From the NCBI GenBank assembly GCA_041751215.1, contig JBGSXW010000002.1, positions 286,591 through 350,590 on the forward strand: DNA of 64,000 bases, in the 5' to 3' direction. This DNA comes from Candidatus Saccharimonadales bacterium (lineage in GTDB: Bacteria > Patescibacteriota > Saccharimonadia > Saccharimonadales > JBGSXW01). Position 1 is the first letter of the stretch. The number at the start of each line of letters is the position of its first letter. The notes under the pieces are model-generated. The model did no database searches and was not told the origin of the DNA. It saw only the letters and a list, made by a program, of their open reading frames with translations. The position numbers and the translations under genes are program-made. Shown here piece after piece: positions 3,826 to 58,397 of this stretch.

Positions 3826-4435
3826 TCTTCACATCCTCGATTATATCTTTCTTGTTGTCTTCAAGGTGTTTGAGGACGTAATCTAGCTGATCGCTCAAAT
3901 CGAGCTCAGATCCGATGGCTTCGATAATGTAGTGATTCAAAATCTCGCCCATGTTTTGCTCAAACTTAGTGATGAGCTGGGTTTTCTCGGCCTCAACTTG
4001 CTGCTTGAGTTGTTGTTCTAGCTGCTCTCTTTGTTGTTCGATTGCGACTTGAGTTCGCTGGATTGACGCCACAGCTTGTTCTTTGGCATCATTGATCGAA
4101 ACTTCGTACTTAGCAAATTCTTGCTGAAGAACTTTAGTGAGCTCCTCTTTCATATACTCGTGCAGCTGGGAGGTTGTTAGCCGCAAGTCTTGCTGTAAAA
4201 AGTCCGCGTTTTCGGAGATGATTTTTTCGAAGTAGAGTCGGCCACGGTTTCGCAGTTCCTCACGAAAATCCTCGTTAAAAATCCGCTCCACATCCTCTTT
4301 GGCGGCATCAACAAGATCATCGCCTGATTTTTTCTTGTGGTGACGTCCGCCGCGAAGTGACATGGCAGCCCAAATAAAGCAAAGTGTGGCAGCTAAGATT
4401 GCAGCTATTAAAATGGCGAATTGATATGTTTCCAT
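3815..4435 (-). CDS. atpF: ATP synthase F0 b subunit
   Basis: A single N-terminal TM helix (FAILIAAILAATLCFIWAAM) followed by a long charged coiled coil, in the expected operon position. Confidence 0.7.
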   Translation of the reverse strand: METYQFAILIAAILAATLCFIWAAMSLRGGRHHKKKSGDDLVDAAKEDVERIFNEDFREELRNRGRLYFEKIISENADFLQQDLRLTTSQLHEYMKEELTKVLQQEFAKYEVSINDAKEQAVASIQRTQVAIEQQREQLEQQLKQQVEAEKTQLITKFEQNMGEILNHYIIEAIGSELDLSDQLDYVLKHLEDNKKDIIEDVKSGA

Positions 4436-24184: not shown

Positions 24185-24259
24185 GGCCCCTTCGTCTAAT
24201 GGTTAGGACACCAGGTTTTCATCCTGGCAATAGGAGTTCGATTCTCCTAGGGGTCACCA
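24185..24259 (+). tRNA. tRNA-Glu (anticodon TTC), CCA encoded
   Basis: Cloverleaf read by eye: acceptor GGCCCCT/AGGGGTC, anticodon loop TTTTCAT, T-arm GGAG-TTCGATT-CTCC. Confidence 0.9.
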
Positions 24260-24420
24260 ACAAAAAGCCTCGCCCTTGTGGTGAGGCTTTTTGTTGGTAG
24301 CTTTATGCGAATCGAACTTCGTAGCGCGTAGCGCGGAGTTCGCTATTCAAGCGAGCCCGCAGATGCTCGCATCGAGGACGAGCGAAGAATATATCATATA
24401 TTCTCCTATTCCCTGTTGTG
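24260..24420 (+). repeat. tRNA-trailing GC-rich module, Glu copy (split pseudo-T-arm)
   Basis: CCA-sequestering hairpin, then H1 GAACT-tcgta-GCGC-gta-GCGC-gg-AGTTC, then GGAGTTCG (the tRNA-Glu T-stem 5' strand plus TTCG), then a 57-nt conserved insert, then ATTCTCCTA (the rest of the tRNA-Glu T-arm). Confidence 0.75.
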
Positions 24421-24427
24421 GATACGG

Positions 24428-25042: not shown

Positions 25043-25135
25043 TCTTCGATTATAGGCGGTCCGCTGGGATTATCACAAGCACTACATGCTCCATTCGTAG
25101 AAAAAACACTGGAAAGCAATCACATGGAATCCCCA

Positions 25136-25165
25136 TTGGACTTTTTTAATGTTATGTGCTATAAT
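25136..25165 (+). promoter_or_regulatory. Sigma70-like promoter of ORF 25235-25672
   Basis: TTGGAC (25136-25141), 18 nt, TATAAT (25160-25165). The 5' UTR carries the hairpin TCAGCC-gata-GGCTGA. Confidence 0.55.
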
Positions 25166-25234
25166 AGCCCCCGTTACTTCAACATGAGGTAGCTCAGCCG
25201 ATAGGCTGATTCTTCGAGAGAAGGGAACTTTTCC

Positions 25235-25672
25235 ATGCCTAAGGTCTTCCTCCAAGGGGACGCCATCTGGGCCGTGCCGCCGTCGCGCGACATACTCACC
25301 GACCAACAGCAATTCACCTACGAGCTGGCCCAAGAGCTCCAGAGCATCTGCGCCTCGGCCATGACGAGATCGGGCTTCGATACCCGAGGGAACCAGGTCG
25401 TCGTGCGCTGCCTGGCACCTCTGCCGCTCGTGATCAACGGGGACAACCTCGAGATCACGTTCGCACCGAACTTCACGCCCGAGCGGCAGGCTCAGGAAGA
25501 AGCGATCCGGGATCACCTGATCGATCTGGTTACGGAGTTCACGGGGGACTGGGTCATTTCCACACTCGGTGAGGCTGGCACGTGGCCGACCATCGCGTAC
25601 GACATCGACTTCACCATGGGCATCGGTGGTCTCACGAACACGGATGGCCTCCTCAAGTCCACCTGGCCCTGA
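25235..25672 (+). CDS. Hypothetical protein (GC-rich island)
   Basis: 145 aa starting MPKVFLQG, with RBS GAAGGGA. The antisense ORF 25082-25516 is a shadow. Confidence 0.65.
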   Translation: MPKVFLQGDAIWAVPPSRDILTDQQQFTYELAQELQSICASAMTRSGFDTRGNQVVVRCLAPLPLVINGDNLEITFAPNFTPERQAQEEAIRDHLIDLVTEFTGDWVISTLGEAGTWPTIAYDIDFTMGIGGLTNTDGLLKSTWP

Positions 25673-25798: not shown

Positions 25799-27262
25799 TT
25801 ACGCAGCTCTCACTCTCGGTATCTGATACCAATCTGTTACATAGGCTGGAGACTGATGATCGCGGTGAGAATGCCAGGTTCGACGATCTCCAGCATCCTC
25901 TCTGGCATGATGAACCGCCGCCGGACCGTAGCGCTTGTTGATAGCATCGACCGTTTGCATTAACAGATCTTGGCGTTTTAAATACGGCTCCGTCGCTGGC
26001 TCTAAAACAGACAATTGTTTAGCACTCTCTGGCACCAAGTGGCTTAAAATAACTCCGGCTTTCTTATAGCTAAAGTCAGGGTCATAGACTTGCTGCATGG
26101 CCGCCAAGGCTGCCTTAATAATTTCGCCCGTATCAGAGGTGGGAATCGGCAGTTTGACCTTATGATAAATATAACTATGTCCACTGGGAATATTGCGTTT
26201 TAAATAAACGCTGACTTCCCAGGTTAGTTCGTGGTTGCGCCGTAATTTAGCGGCCGTTCGGGTTGCAAAATTAGCAATTGCGGCCTCGATCTCGTTTAGA
26301 GCCCTGAGGCTGCTGCCAAACATCCGAGTGGCCGAAATGCTTTGTTGCGGATCATCTGTTTGATCTAAGGGAATACAACTCTCCCCCCTTAGCTCTTTGA
26401 TGGTTTTAAGACCCCTGATGGTTAAGTTCTTAAGGATCCAGCCATCTGGCATCTGAATCAGGTCATAAGCGGTCTTTATGCCCATCCCCTGTAGGCGCGG
26501 CGCTGTGCGCCAGCCTATTCCCCATACATCTTCAACTGGTGTTTGCCGCAGACTATCCTCTGTTAGCTTGGGTTTGTTAACCAAGCTTAGTCCGGCCCCA
26601 AGACTTTGATCTTTTTTGCTTCGAGCAACTGCTAACTTAGCTAGCGTTTTAGTTGGAGCCACCCCTACAGATACCGATATTCCGGTGTGTTTTTCTACCG
26701 TGGCCGCCACCTCTAGTGCCCATCTTTTATAGTCCTCTATGGGTAGCGTGCTGACCTCTAGAAAGGACTCGTCGACCGAATAAACCTCAATGTCGGGTGA
26801 AAACTGTTTGAGAATGGTTGTGATTCGCTGAGACATGTTGCCGTACAGTGCGAAGTTAGCCGAGAAAATCTGAGCTTGATGGGCTTTTAATAGTTCCTTG
26901 TGCTTAAAGTATGGAGCGGCCATAGGAATGCCCAAAGCCTTAATCTCGTTCGACCTAGCGATGATGCAGCCGTCGTTATTGGACAAGACGGCCACTGGCT
27001 TGTCTTTGAGATCGGGCCTAAAGACCCGCTCACAAGAGGCAAAGAAATTATTACAGTCAATCAGAGCGAACAAGGGCATCGTTTTGCCCGGCTTACTGGC
27101 AGAGCCAGCAACTCTGGCAAAACTTGGAGCGCTGAGCTTTGTTCCAGCCTCCGCTACTCCTCTACCGTACTCTGCGTACGCCTTCGTCTGTTGCTCGGCT
27201 GCGCCTCGCTCAGCATCTCCATGCCCGTGCTCGCTAGGGATAGAACCCGGTGGTTGCTTCAT
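25799..27262 (-). CDS. umuC: Y-family translesion DNA polymerase (UmuC-like)
   Basis: ALIDCNNFFASCE, SVDESF and the C-terminus SPAYVTDWYQIPRVRA. ATGA overlap with the upstream umuD-like gene. The 61-aa N-terminal extension may not be translated; the alternative start is ATG 27079. Confidence 0.9.
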   Translation of the reverse strand: MKQPPGSIPSEHGHGDAERGAAEQQTKAYAEYGRGVAEAGTKLSAPSFARVAGSASKPGKTMPLFALIDCNNFFASCERVFRPDLKDKPVAVLSNNDGCIIARSNEIKALGIPMAAPYFKHKELLKAHQAQIFSANFALYGNMSQRITTILKQFSPDIEVYSVDESFLEVSTLPIEDYKRWALEVAATVEKHTGISVSVGVAPTKTLAKLAVARSKKDQSLGAGLSLVNKPKLTEDSLRQTPVEDVWGIGWRTAPRLQGMGIKTAYDLIQMPDGWILKNLTIRGLKTIKELRGESCIPLDQTDDPQQSISATRMFGSSLRALNEIEAAIANFATRTAAKLRRNHELTWEVSVYLKRNIPSGHSYIYHKVKLPIPTSDTGEIIKAALAAMQQVYDPDFSYKKAGVILSHLVPESAKQLSVLEPATEPYLKRQDLLMQTVDAINKRYGPAAVHHAREDAGDRRTWHSHRDHQSPAYVTDWYQIPRVRAA

Positions 27263-27648
27263 CTGTGCGAACCCTTATGGGAGTGTAGATTATAGGTGAT
27301 TACACCCCATATCTGGAGGTCTTGACCGCTAATGGTATCGGCTAGGACCTCCCCCTGTGAGCTCAGCAGAGCCCGCACAGAGCCCTTTACTCCCACCTGC
27401 CCTATCTTGAACTCTCCGTTGTGCCAAGCAACTACTAGGTCTCCTGGTTGCGGATCCAGTGATTTATCGATAATTAACAGATCATTTTTAAAAATGCCCC
27501 AGATCTGAATCTGCCCACTAACTCTCATGAAGAAGGTGCTAGCAGGACGCTTAATTACTAGGTCATGAAGGCTTAGACCAGCTAAATTAGCCTCTTCTGC
27601 AGGATTTGGGAAGCCGGCTTTTACAGGAGTCTGCTTCACGGCATCCAT
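27259..27648 (-). CDS. umuD: UmuD/LexA-C-terminal-like (S24 fold) protein, apparently lacking the Ser/Lys dyad
   Basis: 129 aa that aligns by eye with E. coli UmuD from VQCGFPSPA onward (here VKAGFPNPA). GDSM is replaced by GQIQ, and FTVKKL by FKIGQV. RBS AAGAGGAGG. Confidence 0.75.
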   Translation of the reverse strand: MDAVKQTPVKAGFPNPAEEANLAGLSLHDLVIKRPASTFFMRVSGQIQIWGIFKNDLLIIDKSLDPQPGDLVVAWHNGEFKIGQVGVKGSVRALLSSQGEVLADTISGQDLQIWGVITYNLHSHKGSHR

Positions 27649-49178: not shown

Positions 49179-49353
49179 CTGGTACGCCCGGACGGATGGA
49201 CCTTCGGTCCGCTTCCTCATGTGCTCGATGCGAGCATCTGCGCACACTCGTCACGAACGAACCGACTGCTTCGCAGTATGCGGTTCAAATCCGTGCTCGA
49301 GAGAATCGAGCTGAAAAATAAAACCACCCGCAGAGGGTGGCTTAATTTTTCAG
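49179..49353 (-). repeat. tRNA-trailing GC-rich module, Arg copy (bounded by 19-nt direct repeat)
   Basis: Plus-strand CTGGTACGCCCGGACGGAT occurs at 49179-49197 and again at 49354-49372 (the tRNA-Arg 3' end). H1 spans 49258-49286 and the 60-nt insert spans 49198-49257. Confidence 0.8.
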
Positions 49354-49354
49354 C

Positions 49355-49431
49355 TGGTACGCCCGGACGGATTCGAACCGCCGACCCCTTGGTTCGAAGC
49401 CAAGTACTCTATCCAGCTGAGCTACGGGCGC
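49355..49431 (-). tRNA. tRNA-Arg (anticodon TCG), CCA encoded
   Basis: Minus strand GCGCCCG...CTTGG-CTTCGAA-CCAAG...GGCGG-TTCGAAT-CCGTC-CGGGCGT-A-CCA. Confidence 0.9.
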
Positions 49432-53777: not shown

Positions 53778-53822
53778 ACTCGAAAGCGCATATCAAATGT
53801 GATATTATTGTCGGTACAAATC

Positions 53823-55337
53823 ATGACAACCGACACCCAAAAAATCGGACAAATGATCTCGGCAGTGCGTCGCCAACGAGGACTCACTCAGACTGAGATG
53901 GCCAAGCAACTCAAAACCTCGCAAAGTGCAATTAACCGCATCGAGAAGGGCAATCAAAATGTCAGTATCGAGATGCTCGCGCGCATTAGTGAGGTGCTTA
54001 ATAAAGAAATAGTCTCGCTCTCGGGCGAGTCGATTAGTTTTAAGGTTGAGGGCGCGCAGAAACTCTCCGGATCTGTTGACGTCAAGGTTTCTAAGAACGC
54101 CAGCATGGGATTGCTTTGTGCCGCGCTACTAAACCAAGGAACCACGACACTTAAGCGAGTGCCTCGAATCGAGGAAGTAAATCGCATCCTTGAAGTTCTT
54201 GGCAGCATCGGCGTCGGCATTCGTTGGAAGCCTAACGGCGACCTCGAACTCAAGCCCCCAAAGAAGCTTGCGTTAGATAAAATGGACGTCAAAGCAGCTC
54301 GAAAAACTCGTACTGTCATCATGTTGCTTGGTCCGCTAATGCATATCTTTAATGAGTTTAAGCTTCCCTACGCTGGAGGCTGCGATCTTGGGACCCGCAC
54401 CGTGCAGCCACACTTATTCGCGCTTGAGGACTTTGGTGTCGACATCAAAGCCACGCGTGGTTACTACGACGTTAAGGTTAAGGCCAAAAAGCCAGACACC
54501 ATCGTGATGTATGAATCAGGCGACACACCAACCGAAAACATCCTGATGGCTGCAGCAAAGCGCGAAGGCACAACTGTCATTAAGTTTGCTTCCGCAAACT
54601 ATGCGGTTCAGGATCTATGCCTGTTCCTCAAATTGTTTGGGGTTAAGATCGATGGCATAGGCACCACCACTTTGACTGTCACTGGTGTTAAAAAGTTTAA
54701 CAAAAACGTCACCTACGCCCCAAGCGAAGATCCAATTGAAGCAATGCTGTTTATTTCGATCGCCGCCACCACAAAATCTGCAATAACCATCCAGCGCTGC
54801 CCGATAGACTTCTTGGAACTAGAGCTTCTTAAACTTAAAAAGATGGGCTTTAAGTATAAAATTCTCAAACGCTACAAAGCCAACAACGGCTATACCGAAC
54901 TTGTTGACATCAAGACTCAGCCCAGTGACCTAGTGGCACTAGAAGAAAAACTATACGCTCGCCCATTCCCCGGCCTTAACATTGATAACTTACCTTTCTT
55001 TGTGCCGATTGCCGCTGTTGCAAAAGGTCGCACGCTGGTGCACGACTGGGTGTTTGAGAACCGAGCAATCTATTACACCGAGCTAAACAAGCTCGGCGCC
55101 AAAGTTACTCTGGCCGATACTCACCGAGTTTACGTTGATGGACCAACCAAGTTTAAGGCAGCCGAAATCGTTAGCCCGCCAGCGCTCAGACCGGCCGTAA
55201 TCATCTTGATTGCCATGCTGGCAGCCGAGGGAACTTCGATTCTAAGAAACGTTTACTCGATTAACCGCGGCTACGAAGACCTAGCGGAACGACTCAACCA
55301 GCTCGGCGCTCAAGTTAGCATTTTGCGTGACATCTAG
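53823..55337 (+). CDS. murA: XRE-type HTH domain fused to UDP-N-acetylglucosamine 1-carboxyvinyltransferase
   Basis: The N-terminal ~65 aa are IGQMISAVRRQRGLTQTEMAKQLKTSQSAINRIEKG, followed by the MurA fold with the active-site Cys context PYAGGCDLGTR. Confidence 0.85.
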   Translation: MTTDTQKIGQMISAVRRQRGLTQTEMAKQLKTSQSAINRIEKGNQNVSIEMLARISEVLNKEIVSLSGESISFKVEGAQKLSGSVDVKVSKNASMGLLCAALLNQGTTTLKRVPRIEEVNRILEVLGSIGVGIRWKPNGDLELKPPKKLALDKMDVKAARKTRTVIMLLGPLMHIFNEFKLPYAGGCDLGTRTVQPHLFALEDFGVDIKATRGYYDVKVKAKKPDTIVMYESGDTPTENILMAAAKREGTTVIKFASANYAVQDLCLFLKLFGVKIDGIGTTTLTVTGVKKFNKNVTYAPSEDPIEAMLFISIAATTKSAITIQRCPIDFLELELLKLKKMGFKYKILKRYKANNGYTELVDIKTQPSDLVALEEKLYARPFPGLNIDNLPFFVPIAAVAKGRTLVHDWVFENRAIYYTELNKLGAKVTLADTHRVYVDGPTKFKAAEIVSPPALRPAVIILIAMLAAEGTSILRNVYSINRGYEDLAERLNQLGAQVSILRDI

Positions 55338-56143: not shown

Positions 56144-57055
56144 TTAGTCTTGGTGAGGTGTGTTTGTAGAGTTATCTTCGTGATCTTCGTCAACATCATG
56201 ATCATCTTCGTCTTCGTGATCTTCTTCATGATGATCATCATCTTCATCGTGATGCGCTTCTTCCTCATGTGAGTGCGAGTCATGATCGTGACCGACATCT
56301 ATTTGGTCGTGCAACGTAGTTGCAGCTATACCTACAACTAAAACTCCCGCCACAAGCAATATGGCCGGTAGATCAATCAGCACTTTGTGCTTACTCTGCT
56401 TGTGAATCGATGGAATAATGTCGGAAACTGCTATGTAGATGAAGAATCCGGCAGTTAGGCCCAGCAACGCCTCCACCGGAAAGTTTGCGCCCTGGCCAAG
56501 CTGAAAGAACAACACGGCGGCAACTGTTGTTGCCATAGCGCTGACGATATTGACTATAATTACCGCTCGCCTAGAAAACCCTTTGTTAAGCAGTAGTCCA
56601 AAATCGCCGATCTCCTGCGGGATCTCGTGGGCCGCAACCGCCAATGTAGCTACAACTCCACTTGGCACACTAATTAAGAACGCTGCAGCTATCGCTACTC
56701 CGTCAATAAAATTGTGAACCGTGTCGCCAACAATAATCATTGAGGCTTTAGGATCTAGCTTGCTATCGACATGAACATGGTGGTGGTGAAACCAATTAAG
56801 AAAGCGCTCAAAGAAAAAGAAGCTGATAATACCTAAAAGAGTAAAGATTAAAACTTCATCGGCTTCGCCGGCCTCAATGCCCTCGGGAAGTAAATCAAGA
56901 AAAGCCGCACCAAGTAACGCGCCGGCTGCAAAAGGCGTGGCATACTTTGCCAACTTTCCCGCAAAGGATTTACGGCTCAGCAATAGCAAGCCGCCGAGTA
57001 GTGAAACTATGCCACCGATTAATGAAAAGAATATTACTGTAGATAGATTCGTCAT
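56144..57055 (-). CDS. ZIP-family metal transporter with His/Asp/Glu-rich C-terminal tail
   Basis: HEIPQEIGDFGLL ZIP signature, with the tail HDHDSHSHEEEAHHDEDDDHHEEDHEDEDD. The start is re-picked at ATG 57055. Confidence 0.85.
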   Translation of the reverse strand: MTNLSTVIFFSLIGGIVSLLGGLLLLSRKSFAGKLAKYATPFAAGALLGAAFLDLLPEGIEAGEADEVLIFTLLGIISFFFFERFLNWFHHHHVHVDSKLDPKASMIIVGDTVHNFIDGVAIAAAFLISVPSGVVATLAVAAHEIPQEIGDFGLLLNKGFSRRAVIIVNIVSAMATTVAAVLFFQLGQGANFPVEALLGLTAGFFIYIAVSDIIPSIHKQSKHKVLIDLPAILLVAGVLVVGIAATTLHDQIDVGHDHDSHSHEEEAHHDEDDDHHEEDHEDEDDHDVDEDHEDNSTNTPHQD

Positions 57056-57121: not shown

Positions 57122-57529
57122 ATGAGTTTTGAAGAAAAAATGAAACAAAGTGGGAATAGCGTAACTTCGGCCAGGCGAAGCATTTATAAGCTCCTTAAGC
57201 ATGTCGATATGCCCATGAGTATTCAAGAAATCGCCGGCGAATCGCCGACTATCGACCGTGCTACTGTCTACCGAACCATTGAACTGTTTGAGAAACTTGG
57301 AATCGTTAAGCGTGTTTGGTTTGGGTTTAGAAGTAAAGTCGAGTTAAGTGATCTTTACCAAGAACACCATCACCACTTGGTGTGCGAATCTTGTGGCCGA
57401 ATCATCAAGATTGATCACGCTAACTTAGAGCGTATGGTTTCTAGAATTACCAAAAAGAATAACTACCTTCCGACCAAGCATCACATCGAGATTTTTGGTT
57501 TGTGCGAAGAATGCCAGCTAAAAAAGTAG
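57122..57529 (+). CDS. zur: Fur-family metalloregulator (Zur-like)
   Basis: ATVYRTIELFEKLGIV, HHHHLVCESCG and CEEC. It is divergent from the ZIP transporter. Confidence 0.8.
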   Translation: MSFEEKMKQSGNSVTSARRSIYKLLKHVDMPMSIQEIAGESPTIDRATVYRTIELFEKLGIVKRVWFGFRSKVELSDLYQEHHHHLVCESCGRIIKIDHANLERMVSRITKKNNYLPTKHHIEIFGLCEECQLKK

Positions 57530-57590
57530 TGGGGGTCTTTAAAAATTAACAGATGGCAGGTATAATCGCCTCTGTTCTGTTAACACCGTT

Positions 57591-57676
57591 GCAGGGTTAG
57601 TGAAGCGGTCAAACACGGCAGACTGTAAATCTGCTGGCTTATGCCTTCGTAGGTTCGAATCCTACACCCTGCACCA
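57591..57676 (+). tRNA. tRNA-Tyr (anticodon GTA), long variable arm, CCA encoded
   Basis: Acceptor GCAGGGT/ACCCTGC, anticodon loop CTGTAAA, T-arm GTAGG-TTCGAAT-CCTAC. Confidence 0.9.
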
Positions 57677-57847
57677 AACTAATAATCCGGCCGGAGGTCG
57701 GGTTTTTAGTTTGGTATTGAGTTTAGAAAGAGAACCGTGTCCGCCGCAGGCGGAAGGTTCGGTGGAGCAGGAACACGCGCAAAAGTTTACTTTGAGCATG
57801 TGACTGCGGAGAAGGACGAAGTCCGCTATCCCTCTCCCTGCACCAAA
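57677..57847 (+). repeat. tRNA-trailing GC-rich module, Tyr copy
   Basis: H1 GAACC-gtgt-CCGCC-gca-GGCGG-aa-GGTTC (57732-57760), a 66-nt insert, then ATCCCTCTCCCTGCACCAAA (57828-57847), which matches 17/20 nt of the tRNA-Tyr 3' end at 57659-57678. Confidence 0.7.
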
Positions 57848-57893
57848 ACGTCTACGCTTGCATAATCGGCCAATAAACATAGATAATCAAACA

Positions 57894-58397
57894 ATGGCAA
57901 AAGAAGGCTTAATACTTACTGGATTTATGGGGATGGGAAAATCGACCGTTGGGCCGGCTGTGTCCGAACGTCTTAATATTACCTACTATGATACTGACGA
58001 CTGGATGGAAACTGAGGGTGGGATTGATGTCCCTCATCTGGTTAGAACCAACATGTCGGAGTTCCGAAGAATCGAAGCGGAGGCGCTGAAAACAATACTC
58101 GACCAAGAACCAGGAGTAGTATCAACTGGCGGTGGAATAGTAAGTACCGAGTTTGGCCAAACTGCTTTACGGGCTGCCGCCGTGCCCGTGGTCTGGCTAC
58201 AGGCTCCGTTTGAGGTGGCGGCTAGTCGAGTTGTTAGTGATCCAGGAAGAGAACGACCTTTGTTTAGCGATGTAGAAAGCGCTCGAGCCCTGTTTAATGA
58301 GAGACAACAGTGGTATGAAGAAACGGCCGACTGCATAGTTGACGCCTCTCAGCCTGCAGAGCAAGTTACTGAAGACGTAGTTTCAGCTGTTAGTTAG
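57894..58397 (+). CDS. aroK: Shikimate kinase
   Basis: GFMGMGKSTVG P-loop, YYDTDD and STGGGIV. The start is at ATG 57894. Confidence 0.8.
   Translation: MAKEGLILTGFMGMGKSTVGPAVSERLNITYYDTDDWMETEGGIDVPHLVRTNMSEFRRIEAEALKTILDQEPGVVSTGGGIVSTEFGQTALRAAAVPVVWLQAPFEVAASRVVSDPGRERPLFSDVESARALFNERQQWYEETADCIVDASQPAEQVTEDVVSAVS

Follow-up and report, generated by a model that had tools for sequence, protein, structure and literature searches.

What is the structured DNA that follows the tRNA-Tyr gene in this stretch, and why does it carry pieces of the tRNA itself? An earlier note on the window (the whole 64-kb stretch that was analysed) had proposed that a non-coding structural module is repeated here behind tRNA genes. 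Saccharibacteria live as ultra-small epibionts; their genomes are reduced and contain few mobile elements that can be recognised, and their gene gain and gene shuffling are poorly understood. A module that apparently stands behind most of their tRNA genes and brackets gene cassettes is a concrete and testable handle on gene gain in these bacteria.

Organization of the tRNA-Tyr locus

All parts of the locus lie on the plus strand, and every feature that the earlier note had named here was recovered at its position. A promoter-like site (57538–57566) was found 5' of the tRNA gene. The parts that follow are listed below.

57591–57676, plus strand: tRNA-Tyr(GTA), intact, CCA encoded, anchor of the unit (ARAGORN; Rfam tRNA model, 62.7 bits)
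57674–57714, plus strand: intrinsic terminator of tRNA-Tyr (terminator scan: stem at 57684–57704, then T run)
57712–57737, plus strand: degenerate inverted copy of the tRNA 3' end, running from TGG-T... into GAACCG; only the part that forms H1 is retained
57720–57845, plus strand: Tyr module as found by the covariance model
57732–57761, plus strand: H1, outer stem GAACC/GGTTC, inner hairpin CCGCC-GCA-GGCGG at 57741–57753
57767–57807, plus strand: P2, long-range helix of GCAGGAACACGC with GCATGTGACTGC (RNAalifold; the single-sequence fold concurs)
57782–57793, plus strand: P2a, apical hairpin of P2, AAAGT-TT-ACTTT
57806–57826, plus strand: P3, GCGGA...TCCGC, with GGAC-GAA-GTCC at 57814–57824; ends 1 nt 5' of the tRNA copy
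57828–57845, plus strand: 18-nt copy of tRNA nt 59–76, ATCCCTCTCCCTGCACCA
57846–57893, plus strand: junction with the aroK upstream region (window ...GCACCAAAACGTCTACGCTTGCATAATCGG; locus L213 ...GCACCAAATCGTTTATGCTTGCATAATCAC)

The hairpin directly behind the gene had been described as sequestering the CCA. It is indeed present, and its identity can be refined to that of the tRNA terminator: the outer stem pairs CCAAACTAA with TTAGTTTGG, contains the encoded CCA and encloses a G+C-rich stem, and this segment (57674–57714) combines a G+C-rich hairpin, a T run and a position directly 3' of the gene. The same CCA-pairing layout was seen behind other tRNAs, including nearly all of those that bear a module.

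H1 (GAACC-gtgt-CCGCC-gca-GGCGG-aa-GGTTC, 57732–57760) was present as previously described. Its 5' arm is an inverted copy of the cognate T arm, which had been overlooked; in the remainder of the inverted copy, 7 of the 11 acceptor-complement positions match. The 3' arm, GAAGGTTCG (57753–57761), repeats the 5' strand of the T stem in direct orientation, together with TTCG. The 66-nt insert after GGTTCG (57762–57827) holds CAAAG-ttta-CTTTG, then GAGCATGTGA, then GGAC-gaa-GTCC. The middle hairpin of the earlier description stands, in refined form, as a covarying stem of 4–5 bp (P2a) on top of a longer, irregular helix (P2), which encloses a conserved internal loop CGCA(A/G)...GAGCA.

At the end of the module, ATCCCTCTCCCTGCACCAAA (57828–57847) agrees with ATCCTACACCCTGCACCAAA of the tRNA (57659–57678) at 17 of 20 positions, as had been noticed, and the match occurs nowhere else in the window; one as good or better was obtained in 1 of 20,000 shuffles of the 250 nt downstream. 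The terminal copy corresponds precisely to tRNA nt 59–76, a point missed before. Of these 18 nt, 15 agree with the resident tRNA-Tyr and all 18 with a tRNA-Tyr allele found in another Saccharibacterium (L167). The aroK gene beyond the junction has a product of 154 aa.

A family of modules behind tRNA genes

The covariance model identified exactly four modules in the window, the number counted before; tRNA-His, the fifth tRNA of the window, has none. Besides the Tyr module these are:

24302–24425, plus strand: Glu module, 86.6 bits, behind tRNA-Glu(TTC) (24185–24259); the tRNA copy breaks off after ~8–9 nt
41091–41213, plus strand: Lys module, 81.5 bits, behind tRNA-Lys(CTT) (40970–41046); the tRNA copy is degenerate
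49180–49298, minus strand: Arg module, 88.9 bits, behind tRNA-Arg(TCG) (49355–49431); a perfect 18-nt tRNA copy at its end

Pattern scans and the covariance model yielded more than 160 further copies outside the window, all of them in Saccharibacteria or Patescibacteria MAGs and in soil or rhizosphere metagenomes. A same-strand tRNA lies no more than 130 nt upstream in 97 of 146 modules, and about 19 anticodon classes are represented. A folded module of ~125 bases follows most tRNA genes in Saccharibacteria and is apparently undescribed; full-text literature searches did not find the element described, and its kind appears to be new. A search of the window with Rfam 15 at the gathering threshold returned the five tRNAs and no module; the Tyr and Arg modules gave only chance-level matches at E≤10, and four further loci, including type-2 modules, gave nothing at E≤1. 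Membership of any Rfam family, tRNA-like structures, tmRNA, ribozymes and omega/HEARO RNAs included, was dismissed on these grounds. A phage or plasmid origin, or a phage or plasmid att region, was likewise dismissed, as three pattern scans of IMG/VR gave no true module match and blastn of the module produced no match among 50,697 phage or 72,556 plasmid records.

Modules of one genome are no more alike than modules of different genomes. The within-genome core identity is only ~58%, with no sign of recent bursts, and concerted evolution within genomes was not seen. Vertical sorting according to tRNA identity was not seen either; core sequences do not group in this way, and their sub-families are common to different tRNA identities and genomes.

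Conservation of the fold

Pairing was assessed in two sets of copies. For 21 hand-collected copies, 86% of the cells were paired, compared with 67% in shuffles and 28–40% with slid partners; the covariation score was 0.49 versus 0.15, and the observed value was reached in 0 of 500 shuffles. For 113 distinct metagenomic copies, in an alignment that was fitted to the model and is thereby biased towards structure, pairing was 84.7% versus 69%, with double changes in 22 of 26 pairs. The earlier note had stated that its claim would fail if covariation was lost with more copies; after the addition of more than 160 it persisted. The 1-nt length difference between the Tyr and Arg copies, between H1 and the middle hairpin, is real, and the copies differ more generally by 1–2-nt and long indels. 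Coding sequence was rejected, as only short spurious ORFs cross the module; indels that are not multiples of three and a widely variable P3 length fit a structural element and not a reading frame. Covariation and non-triplet indels together support the proposed non-coding module.

In H1 the seven outer pairs are 92.5% and the four inner pairs 91.7% paired, with double changes, and GAAC...GTTC is invariant. Pairing reaches 98% in P2a, where AU, GC and UA pairs replace one another heavily, and upper P2 covaries too. The outer stem of P3 (AGCGSA/TSCGCT) is paired in 61–63% of cells, with double changes, and P3 differs in length between copies; most of its loops are triloops of the C(GNA)G or C(AAA)G form. 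In the module as a whole, C(GNA)G triloops make up most of the caps and GNRA tetraloops are few, and the unpaired motifs CGCAG and GAGCA are conserved.

In the well-defined helices G:T pairs outnumber A:C pairs by 79 to 17, which identifies the tRNA-sense strand as the folding strand; this excess is equally expected of folded RNA. Single-sequence folding energies did not tell the strands apart, and at the Tyr locus the minus strand folds even better. H1 and P2 are intact in copies with a truncated 18-mer (Glu and Lys in the window), so that the fold appears to be selected in place, independently of the segment that is proposed below for crossover. Selection in place appears to suit a resident RNA or a structural role at least as well.

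Segments derived from the cognate tRNA

Throughout the family, identity of the 18-mer with the tRNA begins at nt 59 and ends at A76, the CCA end. Of 97 copies, 30 have a perfect 18-mer and 53 have one with no more than two mismatches, compared with a mode of 9 mismatches to non-cognate tRNAs; about one third of the copies are degenerate. The 3' arm of H1 is also cognate-specific, with nt 49–51 matched at 3/3 in 37% of copies versus 3.7% for non-cognate tRNAs. The inverted match to the T arm reaches 16/17 (L134), and in L139 the whole 28 nt are present in inverted form. Many 18-mers and inverted copies are visibly decaying; the truncated 18-mers resemble breakpoints 7–13 nt in and not point decay. 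In every copy the tRNA-derived sequence is split at A58 by the P2–P3 domain, and in every type-1 copy the insertion point follows GTTCG. A tRNA pseudogene, tRNA-like structure or tmRNA was rejected: the module has no 5' acceptor strand, it was not called by ARAGORN or the Rfam tRNA model, and the split pseudo-T stem shows no maintenance, with 64 single changes that disrupt it and 13 that preserve it.

Arrays, cassettes and signs of insertion

Some units are empty (~170 nt), while others are loaded with accessory genes, one to three of them and co-oriented. At L122, three divergent units stand in tandem, and every one has a terminator and an 18-mer to itself; in L075, L069, L186, L187 and L189 a unit is followed by co-oriented cargo, a remnant 3' end, a terminator and another unit. 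No tRNA was found within 130 nt upstream of 37 modules; of the 25 among them with inspectable upstream sequence, most follow cargo genes, and nine orphan modules still bear a perfect tRNA 18-mer. The cargo consists of cassette-type genes (PIN, GNAT, ArsR, peptidase S51, YdjM, GIY-YIG and unknowns). As in integrated islands, a repeat, here the 18 nt of nt 59–76, flanks the inserted DNA, with cargo between a full and a remnant copy. These arrays around gene cassettes point to a role in insertion or recombination, beyond the mere structure proposed earlier.

Behind the 18-mer, the window continues with the aroK upstream sequence; at L213 this sequence was found directly behind the CCA of an intact tRNA-Gly(ccc), with no module. 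Judged from these two sequences, the unit behaves as an insertion at the CCA. There are also signs of exchange, namely the foreign-allele 18-mer at the Tyr locus, modules that are as dissimilar within a genome as between genomes, the core unsorted by tRNA and the breakpoint-like 18-mers. The distance from the terminator to H1 is only 9–25 nt, and no promoter was found inside or directly before the module; about one quarter of the modules have another terminator downstream. A GCTTGCA motif behind the 18-mer is not general (3 of 141).

Search for a linked enzyme

Pfam searches of 286 neighbouring and 20 cargo ORFs revealed no recurrent enzyme family. Among the 25 commonest families of each neighbour set (136 and 150 ORFs), a scope outside which families of single ORFs fall, there was no recombinase, transposase or reverse transcriptase and no family of the Phage_integrase type, and no integrase was found when the 20 cargo ORFs were scanned individually. 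A phmmer search with an XerD seed detected one XerD-like ORF in ~850 kb, near one array. No TnpB-, IscB- or IS110-type nuclease or recombinase gene was present in the window or among the commonest families around the >160 modules. An omega RNA or bridge RNA is an attractive idea for a 3' 'guide' with sense and antisense T-arm segments. TnpB omega RNA and IS110 bridge RNA were rejected because no such gene is linked within this scope, the latter also because both right-hand segments are sense, unlike the target loop of a bridge RNA. Without a linked enzyme, that of any insertion system is purely hypothetical.

Proposed role and alternative explanations

We tentatively propose that the region comprises the tRNA-Tyr terminator and one member of a Saccharibacteria-wide class of tRNA-trailing insertion units, in which the module would be a cis-acting attachment site for insertion at tRNA 3' ends. 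A unit begins with the CCA-pairing terminator. Next come the tRNA 3' end in inverted form, reduced to its anti-T-arm, and the T-stem 5' strand plus TTCG in direct form, and the two pair as H1; the P2/P2a and P3 domains stand in the place of A58, followed by the copy of nt 59–76. In its role the module would be comparable to an integron attC, and the tRNA 3' end would take the part of attI. With the tRNA-sense strand folded, H1 would restore, as a duplex, the left half of the T arm of the tRNA gene. The 18-mer would provide homology or the site of crossover, or else represent a target duplication; the enzyme would be supplied from elsewhere in the genome. The family, its fold and folding strand, the sharply bounded cognate tRNA parts, the tandem and cassette arrays and the lack of a linked enzyme are observations, whereas the insertion or recombination function, the single-stranded DNA nature of the folded molecule and the kind of enzyme are inferred. 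Distribution, cognate-matched tRNA parts, arrays, insertion at the CCA, signs of exchange and a real fold all argue for this reading. For the folded molecule we lean towards single-stranded DNA over RNA, on account of the strong upstream terminator, its short distance to H1, the lack of a promoter and the C(GNA)G caps, from which unusually stable DNA hairpins are expected. Counting against an attachment module are the lack of a linked enzyme, a fold that outlives the 18-mer, a G:T excess compatible with RNA and the absence of recent bursts. More speculatively, the modules might form an integron-like gene-capture platform across the tRNA genes of Saccharibacteria. Cassettes, empty or with one to three genes, would be inserted at tRNA 3' ends via a folded single-stranded module that mimics the double-stranded T-arm/3'-end region of the cognate tRNA gene, and an enzyme in trans would measure its target between A58 and the CCA end; natural transformation may supply the DNA substrate. 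We consider this broader scheme rather doubtful.

The attachment module has a serious rival, if an unlikely one, in a structured non-coding RNA that trails the tRNA and arises from terminator read-through or cassette transcripts. Its single-stranded 3' tail would equal the tRNA 3' end and its 5' part would be antisense to the T arm. It could help to mature tRNAs or to check their quality, or it could be a decoy that diverts enzymes or toxins from tRNA 3' ends. It could also direct a partner to the tRNA gene as a TnpB omega RNA does; the scaffold would then be followed by a 3' guide, and TTCGA would be the TAM-like flank. Such an RNA would account for the conserved fold with its many compensatory changes, for the tolerance of G:T wobbles on the tRNA-sense strand only (79 versus 17), for the conserved unpaired CGCAG and GAGCA and for the retention of the fold where the 18-mer has decayed; the 18-mer stops exactly at the mature CCA end, and the second terminator behind about one quarter of the modules would provide a defined 3' end. 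However, a strong intrinsic terminator lies directly upstream, with neither space nor signal for a promoter, and the hairpins carry C(GNA)G triloops instead of the GNRA or UNCG tetraloops typical of structured RNAs. No Rfam family matches, and no partner protein gene (TnpB, IscB, IS110-type or Cas) is linked. A tRNA-like minihelix cannot form without the 5' acceptor strand, the pseudo-T stem has not been maintained (64 breaking versus 13 keeping changes), and a guide or mimic should not tolerate degeneracy in about one third of the 18-mers. The cassette arrays would be left unaccounted for.

Less probable again, the module may be selfish, a miniature insertion element like a MITE or PATE that is non-autonomous and is mobilised in trans by a transposase-type enzyme (HUH/Y1, casposase-like or similar). 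It would target the region from T loop to 3' end in single-stranded DNA, the 18-mer being the target-site duplication and the cassettes passengers. The sharp, constant boundaries at nt 59 and A76 look like a ruler-like staggered cut, type-1 copies are all inserted after GTTCG, and empty units stack in tandem with an 18-mer each. GNA-capped mini-hairpins are typical of single-stranded-DNA transposon ends, and core sub-families are common to various tRNA identities and genomes. The inverted and direct tRNA-end copies resemble terminal inverted repeats, yet these 'inverted repeats' are tRNA-specific, the element is never found away from tRNA-derived sequence, and a target duplication of nt 59–76 leaves the cognate-specific T-stem 5' strand and its complement unexplained. 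Copies within a genome are highly diverged, without the near-identical families of active MITEs, and no transposase was seen in ~850 kb; the foreign-allele 18-mer at the Tyr locus hints that the 18-mer stems from the donor and not the target. The modules might finally be passive scars, that is, functionless attR-type remnants of integrase-bearing islands or local duplications in which the hairpins are incidental. Integrated islands are classically recognised by a tRNA 3' end that is repeated in direct orientation downstream of the gene, and many 18-mers and inverted copies are visibly decaying. But a ~110-nt fold kept in >160 copies with compensatory changes and a strand-specific G:T excess is unexpected of neutral scars, a conserved P2–P3 interrupts the tRNA copy at A58 in every copy, and integrase remnants are missing nearby. 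The covariation strongly disfavours scars, which we regard as very improbable.

If the insertion reading is true, the modules represent a new attachment-site architecture, in which a single strand mimics a tRNA gene, and an enzyme is predicted; some Saccharibacteria are genetically tractable, and the site could then serve as a natural landing pad for engineering. A gene-capture platform, if true, would add a new class to the site-specific insertion systems, and these reduced genomes would owe a major part of their gene gain to it. An RNA would constitute a new and abundant class of tRNA-linked structured RNAs. Either way, elements of ~125 nt, dozens per genome, are currently left unlabelled by annotation pipelines.

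Comparison with known systems

Like integron attC sites, which are 60–140 nt long, the modules are structured, and each appears to close a co-oriented accessory-gene cassette, mostly a small one, on its 3' side. In both, structure and not sequence is conserved, one specific strand folds, and arrays seem to grow at one anchor. The cargo of both is rich in GNAT, toxin-type and unknown genes, and the invariant AAC...GTT triplets at the base of the attC hairpin have a counterpart in the invariant GAAC...GTTC of H1. Unlike in integrons, the anchor is the tRNA 3' end of ~19 classes instead of a single attI beside intI, no IntI-type integrase was found near modules, the module carries cognate tRNA-derived segments and an 18-nt repeat, and every site has a terminator before it. 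A canonical attC was rejected: compared with the consensus RYYYAAC...GTTRRRY, the 5' box reads, for example, CTCGAAC, and the 3' box is GTTCGGT or GTTCGTT, with C at the first R.

Tyrosine-integrase islands reportedly sit at tRNA genes between attL/attR repeats, with sublocations at the T loop or the 3' end (an account attributed to Williams, 2002). The modules share with tRNA-targeting islands a direct repeat from the T loop to the 3' end, an intact tRNA and tandem accretion at one tRNA. They differ in that units can be empty at ~170 nt, the repeat is split by a folded insert and an inverted copy of the tRNA end is also present. Of the marks of a classical tRNA-integrated island the direct repeat is there, but no integrase was found in or near the units in the Pfam and phmmer searches described above, apart from the one XerD-like ORF.

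CTX-type phages use a folded single-stranded attP and are Xer-dependent IMEX elements that target dif. In their attP, too, two inverted partial copies of the target on one strand pair into a duplex image of it; the enzyme is host-encoded elsewhere and the integrated form is not simply reversible, to which the modules may be likened. However, the CTX target is dif and not a tRNA gene, the elements are phage genomes and not 170-nt units or cassettes, and no evidence ties Xer to the modules, a single XerD-like ORF near one array being all that was found.

Casposons and CRISPR repeat duplication, with their Cas1-type integration, also involve insertion at tRNA 3' ends, a target duplication of fixed length, tandem arrays that share it and a palindromic target that acts as a ruler. 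For the modules, however, neither Cas1 nor a casposase was seen, the duplicated stretch would measure 18 nt instead of the 14–15 bp of casposons, and a target duplication would not account for the further tRNA-derived parts. TnpB/IscB omega RNAs and the PATEs of IS200/IS605 likewise have a structured scaffold followed by a ~18-nt 3' segment equal to flanking target DNA; a short conserved motif, TTCGA, 5' of the matching target is TAM-like, and the GNA-capped hairpins are of the DNA type. On the other side, no tnpB, iscB or tnpA is linked, the scaffold is much shorter, unrelated and without an Rfam match, and the cargo lies outside the would-be transposon ends, unlike in IS200/IS605. A last parallel is the primer-binding site of retroviruses and LTR elements. 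The module copy is, unlike that site, sense on the folding strand and stands in no reverse transcriptase or LTR-like context, but exactly the same 18 nt are copied (nt 59–76, between A58 and the CCA end).

The module behind tRNA-Tyr

The folded element of ~125 nt that follows tRNA genes appears to be a structured module that is anchored at tRNAs, occurs throughout the lineage, is linked to cassette arrays and has no earlier description. For the copy behind tRNA-Tyr, the sequence of 57591–57900 agreed exactly with the description in the earlier note, which had claimed a structured non-coding module at 57677–57847. The elements of this copy are as follows.

57591–57676, tRNA-Tyr(GTA)
57674–57714, intrinsic terminator from a consensus scan, CCAAACTAA...TTAGTTTGG around a G+C-rich stem and T run
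57732–57760, hairpin H1, GAACC-gtgt-CCGCC-gca-GGCGG-aa-GGTTC
after GGTTCG, 66-nt insert with CAAAG-ttta-CTTTG, then GAGCATGTGA, then GGAC-gaa-GTCC
57828–57847, copy of the tRNA-Tyr 3' end, ATCCCTCTCCCTGCACCAAA

The match of the last element to the final 18 nt of tRNA-Tyr plus two As was confirmed as 17/20; a match of this quality arose in 1 of 20,000 shuffles of the 250 nt downstream, and no second site as good was found elsewhere in the window. Homologous modules lie behind tRNA-Glu, tRNA-Lys and tRNA-Arg, which gives exactly four in the window by covariance model, and the tRNA-His of the window is without a module. The Tyr module is located between a Fur-like gene and aroK, in an ordinary Saccharibacteria-type chromosome segment (48.8% G+C) with genes for ATP synthase, MetRS, UvrD, PGK, pyruvate kinase, SHMT, MurB and TyrRS among others; no recombinase, transposase or reverse transcriptase genes were found in the window.

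The Fur-like regulator (57123–57529, +), just upstream of tRNA-Tyr, is the divergent partner of a putative metal transporter gene (56144–57055, −), identified from its sequence alone, whose product has an extreme His/Asp/Glu-rich C-terminal tail. The EPSP synthase (aroA; 53799–55334, +) carries an N-terminal HTH_3 DNA-binding domain, an unusual fusion. Near the Glu module lies a gene for a UmuC/DinB-type Y-family polymerase (25799–27262, −; domains IMS, IMS_C and DUF4113), flanked by small ORFs at 25082–25516 and 27259–27648.

Family size and distribution

A first search pattern, derived from three window copies and with zero chance matches expected in the window, matched 90 loci among 185,579 species genomes. 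About 23 of these are in MAGs of Saccharibacteria, Saccharimonadales or Patescibacteria, and a further one in a MAG labelled Dormiibacterota; wherever upstream sequence was present in these MAG loci and the match was not behind cargo, it stood 50–60 nt downstream of a same-strand tRNA. The other matches, in high-G+C genomes with no tRNA near, were taken as chance. A second pattern matched at least 120 metagenome contigs, and R1, the covariance model built for the module, recovered 116 and 52 modules in two sets. A tRNA ends at most 130 nt upstream of 97 of 146 modules, with ~19 anticodon classes covered. The modules had no match in Rfam 15, in IMG/VR (pattern scans) or in phage and plasmid collections, and full-text literature searches found no description of them.

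Fold and folding strand

RNAalifold predicted 19 pairs from 21 copies, 14 of them with compensatory changes. For a 25-pair structure, 86% of cells were paired, versus 67% in shuffles and 28–40% with slid partners, and the covariation score was 0.49 versus 0.15; 0 of 500 shuffles reached the observed score. Among 113 distinct metagenomic copies the paired fraction was 84.7% versus 69%, with double changes in 22 of 26 pairs; this alignment had been fitted to the model itself, from copies picked with a P2-region pattern, and is thus biased towards structure. Related sequences, moreover, can exceed shuffles even without structure. Overall, the covariation and the family of copies support the structural interpretation offered earlier and greatly extend it. 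In well-defined helices G:T outnumbered A:C by 79 to 17 (10 to 1 in a hand set), which indicates that the tRNA-sense strand is the folding strand; single-sequence folding energies did not tell the strands apart.

Anatomy of the unit

The unit begins with the terminator, within whose outer stem the encoded CCA pairs. Next, the tRNA 3' end is repeated in inverted orientation; in most copies only ...CGAACCx remains of it. At one locus (L134) the inverted T arm still matches 16/17, and in L139, apparently the 'youngest' unit, all 28 nt are retained: at 60–320 (−) the 3' end of tRNA-Lys(ctt) plus an A tract forms a perfect 27-bp hairpin with the complete inverted copy after the terminator. The third part opens with a small hairpin whose cap is usually a C(GNA)G triloop. 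Behind it the T-stem 5' strand plus TTCG is repeated in direct orientation, and this segment pairs with the inverted copy to give H1. The T-stem copy is cognate-specific, with 3/3 matches at nt 49–51 in 37% of copies versus 3.7% for non-cognate tRNAs. Two domains, P2 and P3, occupy the place of A58. The helix of P2 is long and irregular, frequently with tandem G.A pairs, and encloses a conserved CGCAG...GAGCA loop and P2a, a 4–5-bp hairpin; P3 forms a hairpin whose length varies.

The last part is an 18-nt copy of tRNA nt 59–76 (the 18-mer); the copied tRNA sequence is split exactly at A58 and ends exactly at A76. Identity to the cognate tRNA is 0.76–0.97 from nt 59 to A76, and 0.03–0.39 and 0.27–0.53 just outside on the left and right, respectively. 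A perfect 18-mer was found in 30 of 97 modules, and 53 of the 97 stay within two mismatches; non-cognate tRNAs peak at nine. The split pseudo-T stem is not kept (single changes breaking versus keeping it, 64 versus 13), so the T-stem copy has its partner in H1, and the 18-mer has none within the module. The retroviral primer-binding site uses the same 18 nt of the tRNA.

Signs of insertion and exchange

Comparison of loci provides evidence for a unit that would behave as inserted, exchangeable DNA. The sequence upstream of aroK follows the 18-mer in the window (57846–57893). In L213 (2455–2500) it stands immediately behind an intact tRNA-Gly(ccc), after its CCA; in L215 (2460–2500) it comes after a tRNA-Glu(ctc) unit, and in L214 (2455–2500) it occurs without a tRNA. 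Since in three genomes aroK with its conserved upstream sequence directly follows the 3' end, or its copy, of a different tRNA (Tyr, Gly-ccc, Glu-ctc), tRNA 3' ends look like rearrangement breakpoints. The Tyr 18-mer (57828–57845) matches the resident tRNA-Tyr at 15/18 and a tRNA-Tyr allele of another Saccharibacterium (L167, 812–896) at 18/18. Core identity is no higher within one genome (0.575) than between genomes (0.61). Core sub-families occur behind different tRNAs, and nearest neighbours shared tRNA identity in 11 of 75 cases versus 6.5 expected; despite this unsorted core, the tRNA-derived parts fit the local tRNA. Where the 18-mer is truncated, the pattern resembles a breakpoint 7–13 nt in rather than point decay.

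Arrays and cargo

Three mutually divergent tandem units, each with its own terminator and 18-mer, lie behind tRNA-Arg(cct) in L122. At five other loci (L075, L069, L186, L187 and L189) the unit is followed by 0.5–2 kb of co-oriented genes and then by a tRNA 3'-end remnant and a further terminator, module and 18-mer. No tRNA is present within 130 nt upstream of 37 modules, nine of which have a perfect tRNA 18-mer; upstream sequence was inspected for 25, and most are behind cargo genes. The cargo comprises PIN, GNAT, ArsR, peptidase S51, YdjM, a small GIY-YIG nuclease, EEP and many unknowns. The GIY-YIG ORF (L189, 10418–10789, −; 124 aa), the sole nuclease-type cargo observed, follows tRNA-Asp as the first gene of a cargo stretch that has a module at its end.

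In two sets of ORFs near modules, of 136 and 150, the 25 commonest Pfam families of each included no recombinase family. A XerD seed search matched one ORF in ~850 kb of module-bearing contigs, a XerD-like tyrosine recombinase (L122, 1685–2614, −) 1.1 kb past the triple array, which is probably a housekeeping Xer. Competence genes of the ComEC type were seen repeatedly within a few kb of tRNA-Lys modules (L005, 466–1995, −; L011, 5599–7047, +; L028, 1885–3333, +). This recurrence, probably a matter of conserved synteny, nonetheless calls to mind the uptake of single-stranded DNA by these bacteria.

Possible role of the module

As the reading that best fits the data we tentatively propose a cis-acting attachment module, where insertion or recombination at tRNA 3' ends would be carried out by an enzyme supplied from elsewhere in the genome. 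Integron attC is similar as a structured, strand-specific site ending co-oriented cassettes. The folded attP of CTX-type phages is similar in that parts of the target, copied in inverted orientation on a single strand, recreate a duplex image of it. The module does not appear to belong to either family: it departs from the attC consensus, and linkage to IntI or Xer was not found in the ORFs and contigs scanned.

As the folded form we infer, and lean towards, single-stranded DNA, because a strong terminator lies directly upstream, only 9–25 nt before H1 and with no promoter found in between, and because most hairpins are capped by C(GNA)G triloops instead of GNRA or UNCG tetraloops. Both points weigh against a read-through tRNA-trailer RNA. 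The G:T excess would nevertheless fit RNA equally well, and the fold persists where the 18-mer is truncated, which is explained no less well by a role as a resident RNA or structure. Such an RNA is therefore a serious competitor of the insertion reading, and so, with slightly lower probability, is a selfish miniature transposon whose target duplication would be 18 nt. The covariation makes neutral scars very unlikely.

Variant modules

A second module type, with the signature GTGAGA-(TGCCnGnGGCA hairpin)-TTGCAAGG-..., is found in the corresponding position after other tRNAs (Val, Gly-tcc, Leu-gag, Lys). Its terminal tRNA 3' copy is perfect, and it has no Rfam match. A short variant of the module is without the CGCAG...GAGCA core, but its terminator and 18-mer are still present, together with a hairpin and a reduced form of H1.

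Positions of the variant modules
L057, 1640–1822, second type
L056, 4366–4527 (−), second type
L090, ~1750–2000 (−), second type
L005, 2330–2450, second type
L069, 170–268, 2290–2400 and 3135–3235, short variant
L215, 2290–2385, short variant

In L057 the intact tRNA-Gly(gcc) (4172–4248) is immediately preceded by a pseudo-tRNA-Gly(gcc) (3987–4170). This pseudo-tRNA begins with 25 nt copied exactly from the tRNA 5' end, continues with a type-2 insert between D arm and anticodon arm and then a degenerate remainder, and is a 5'-side counterpart of the 3' modules. The three short-variant copies of L069 lie between GNAT and unknown cassettes.
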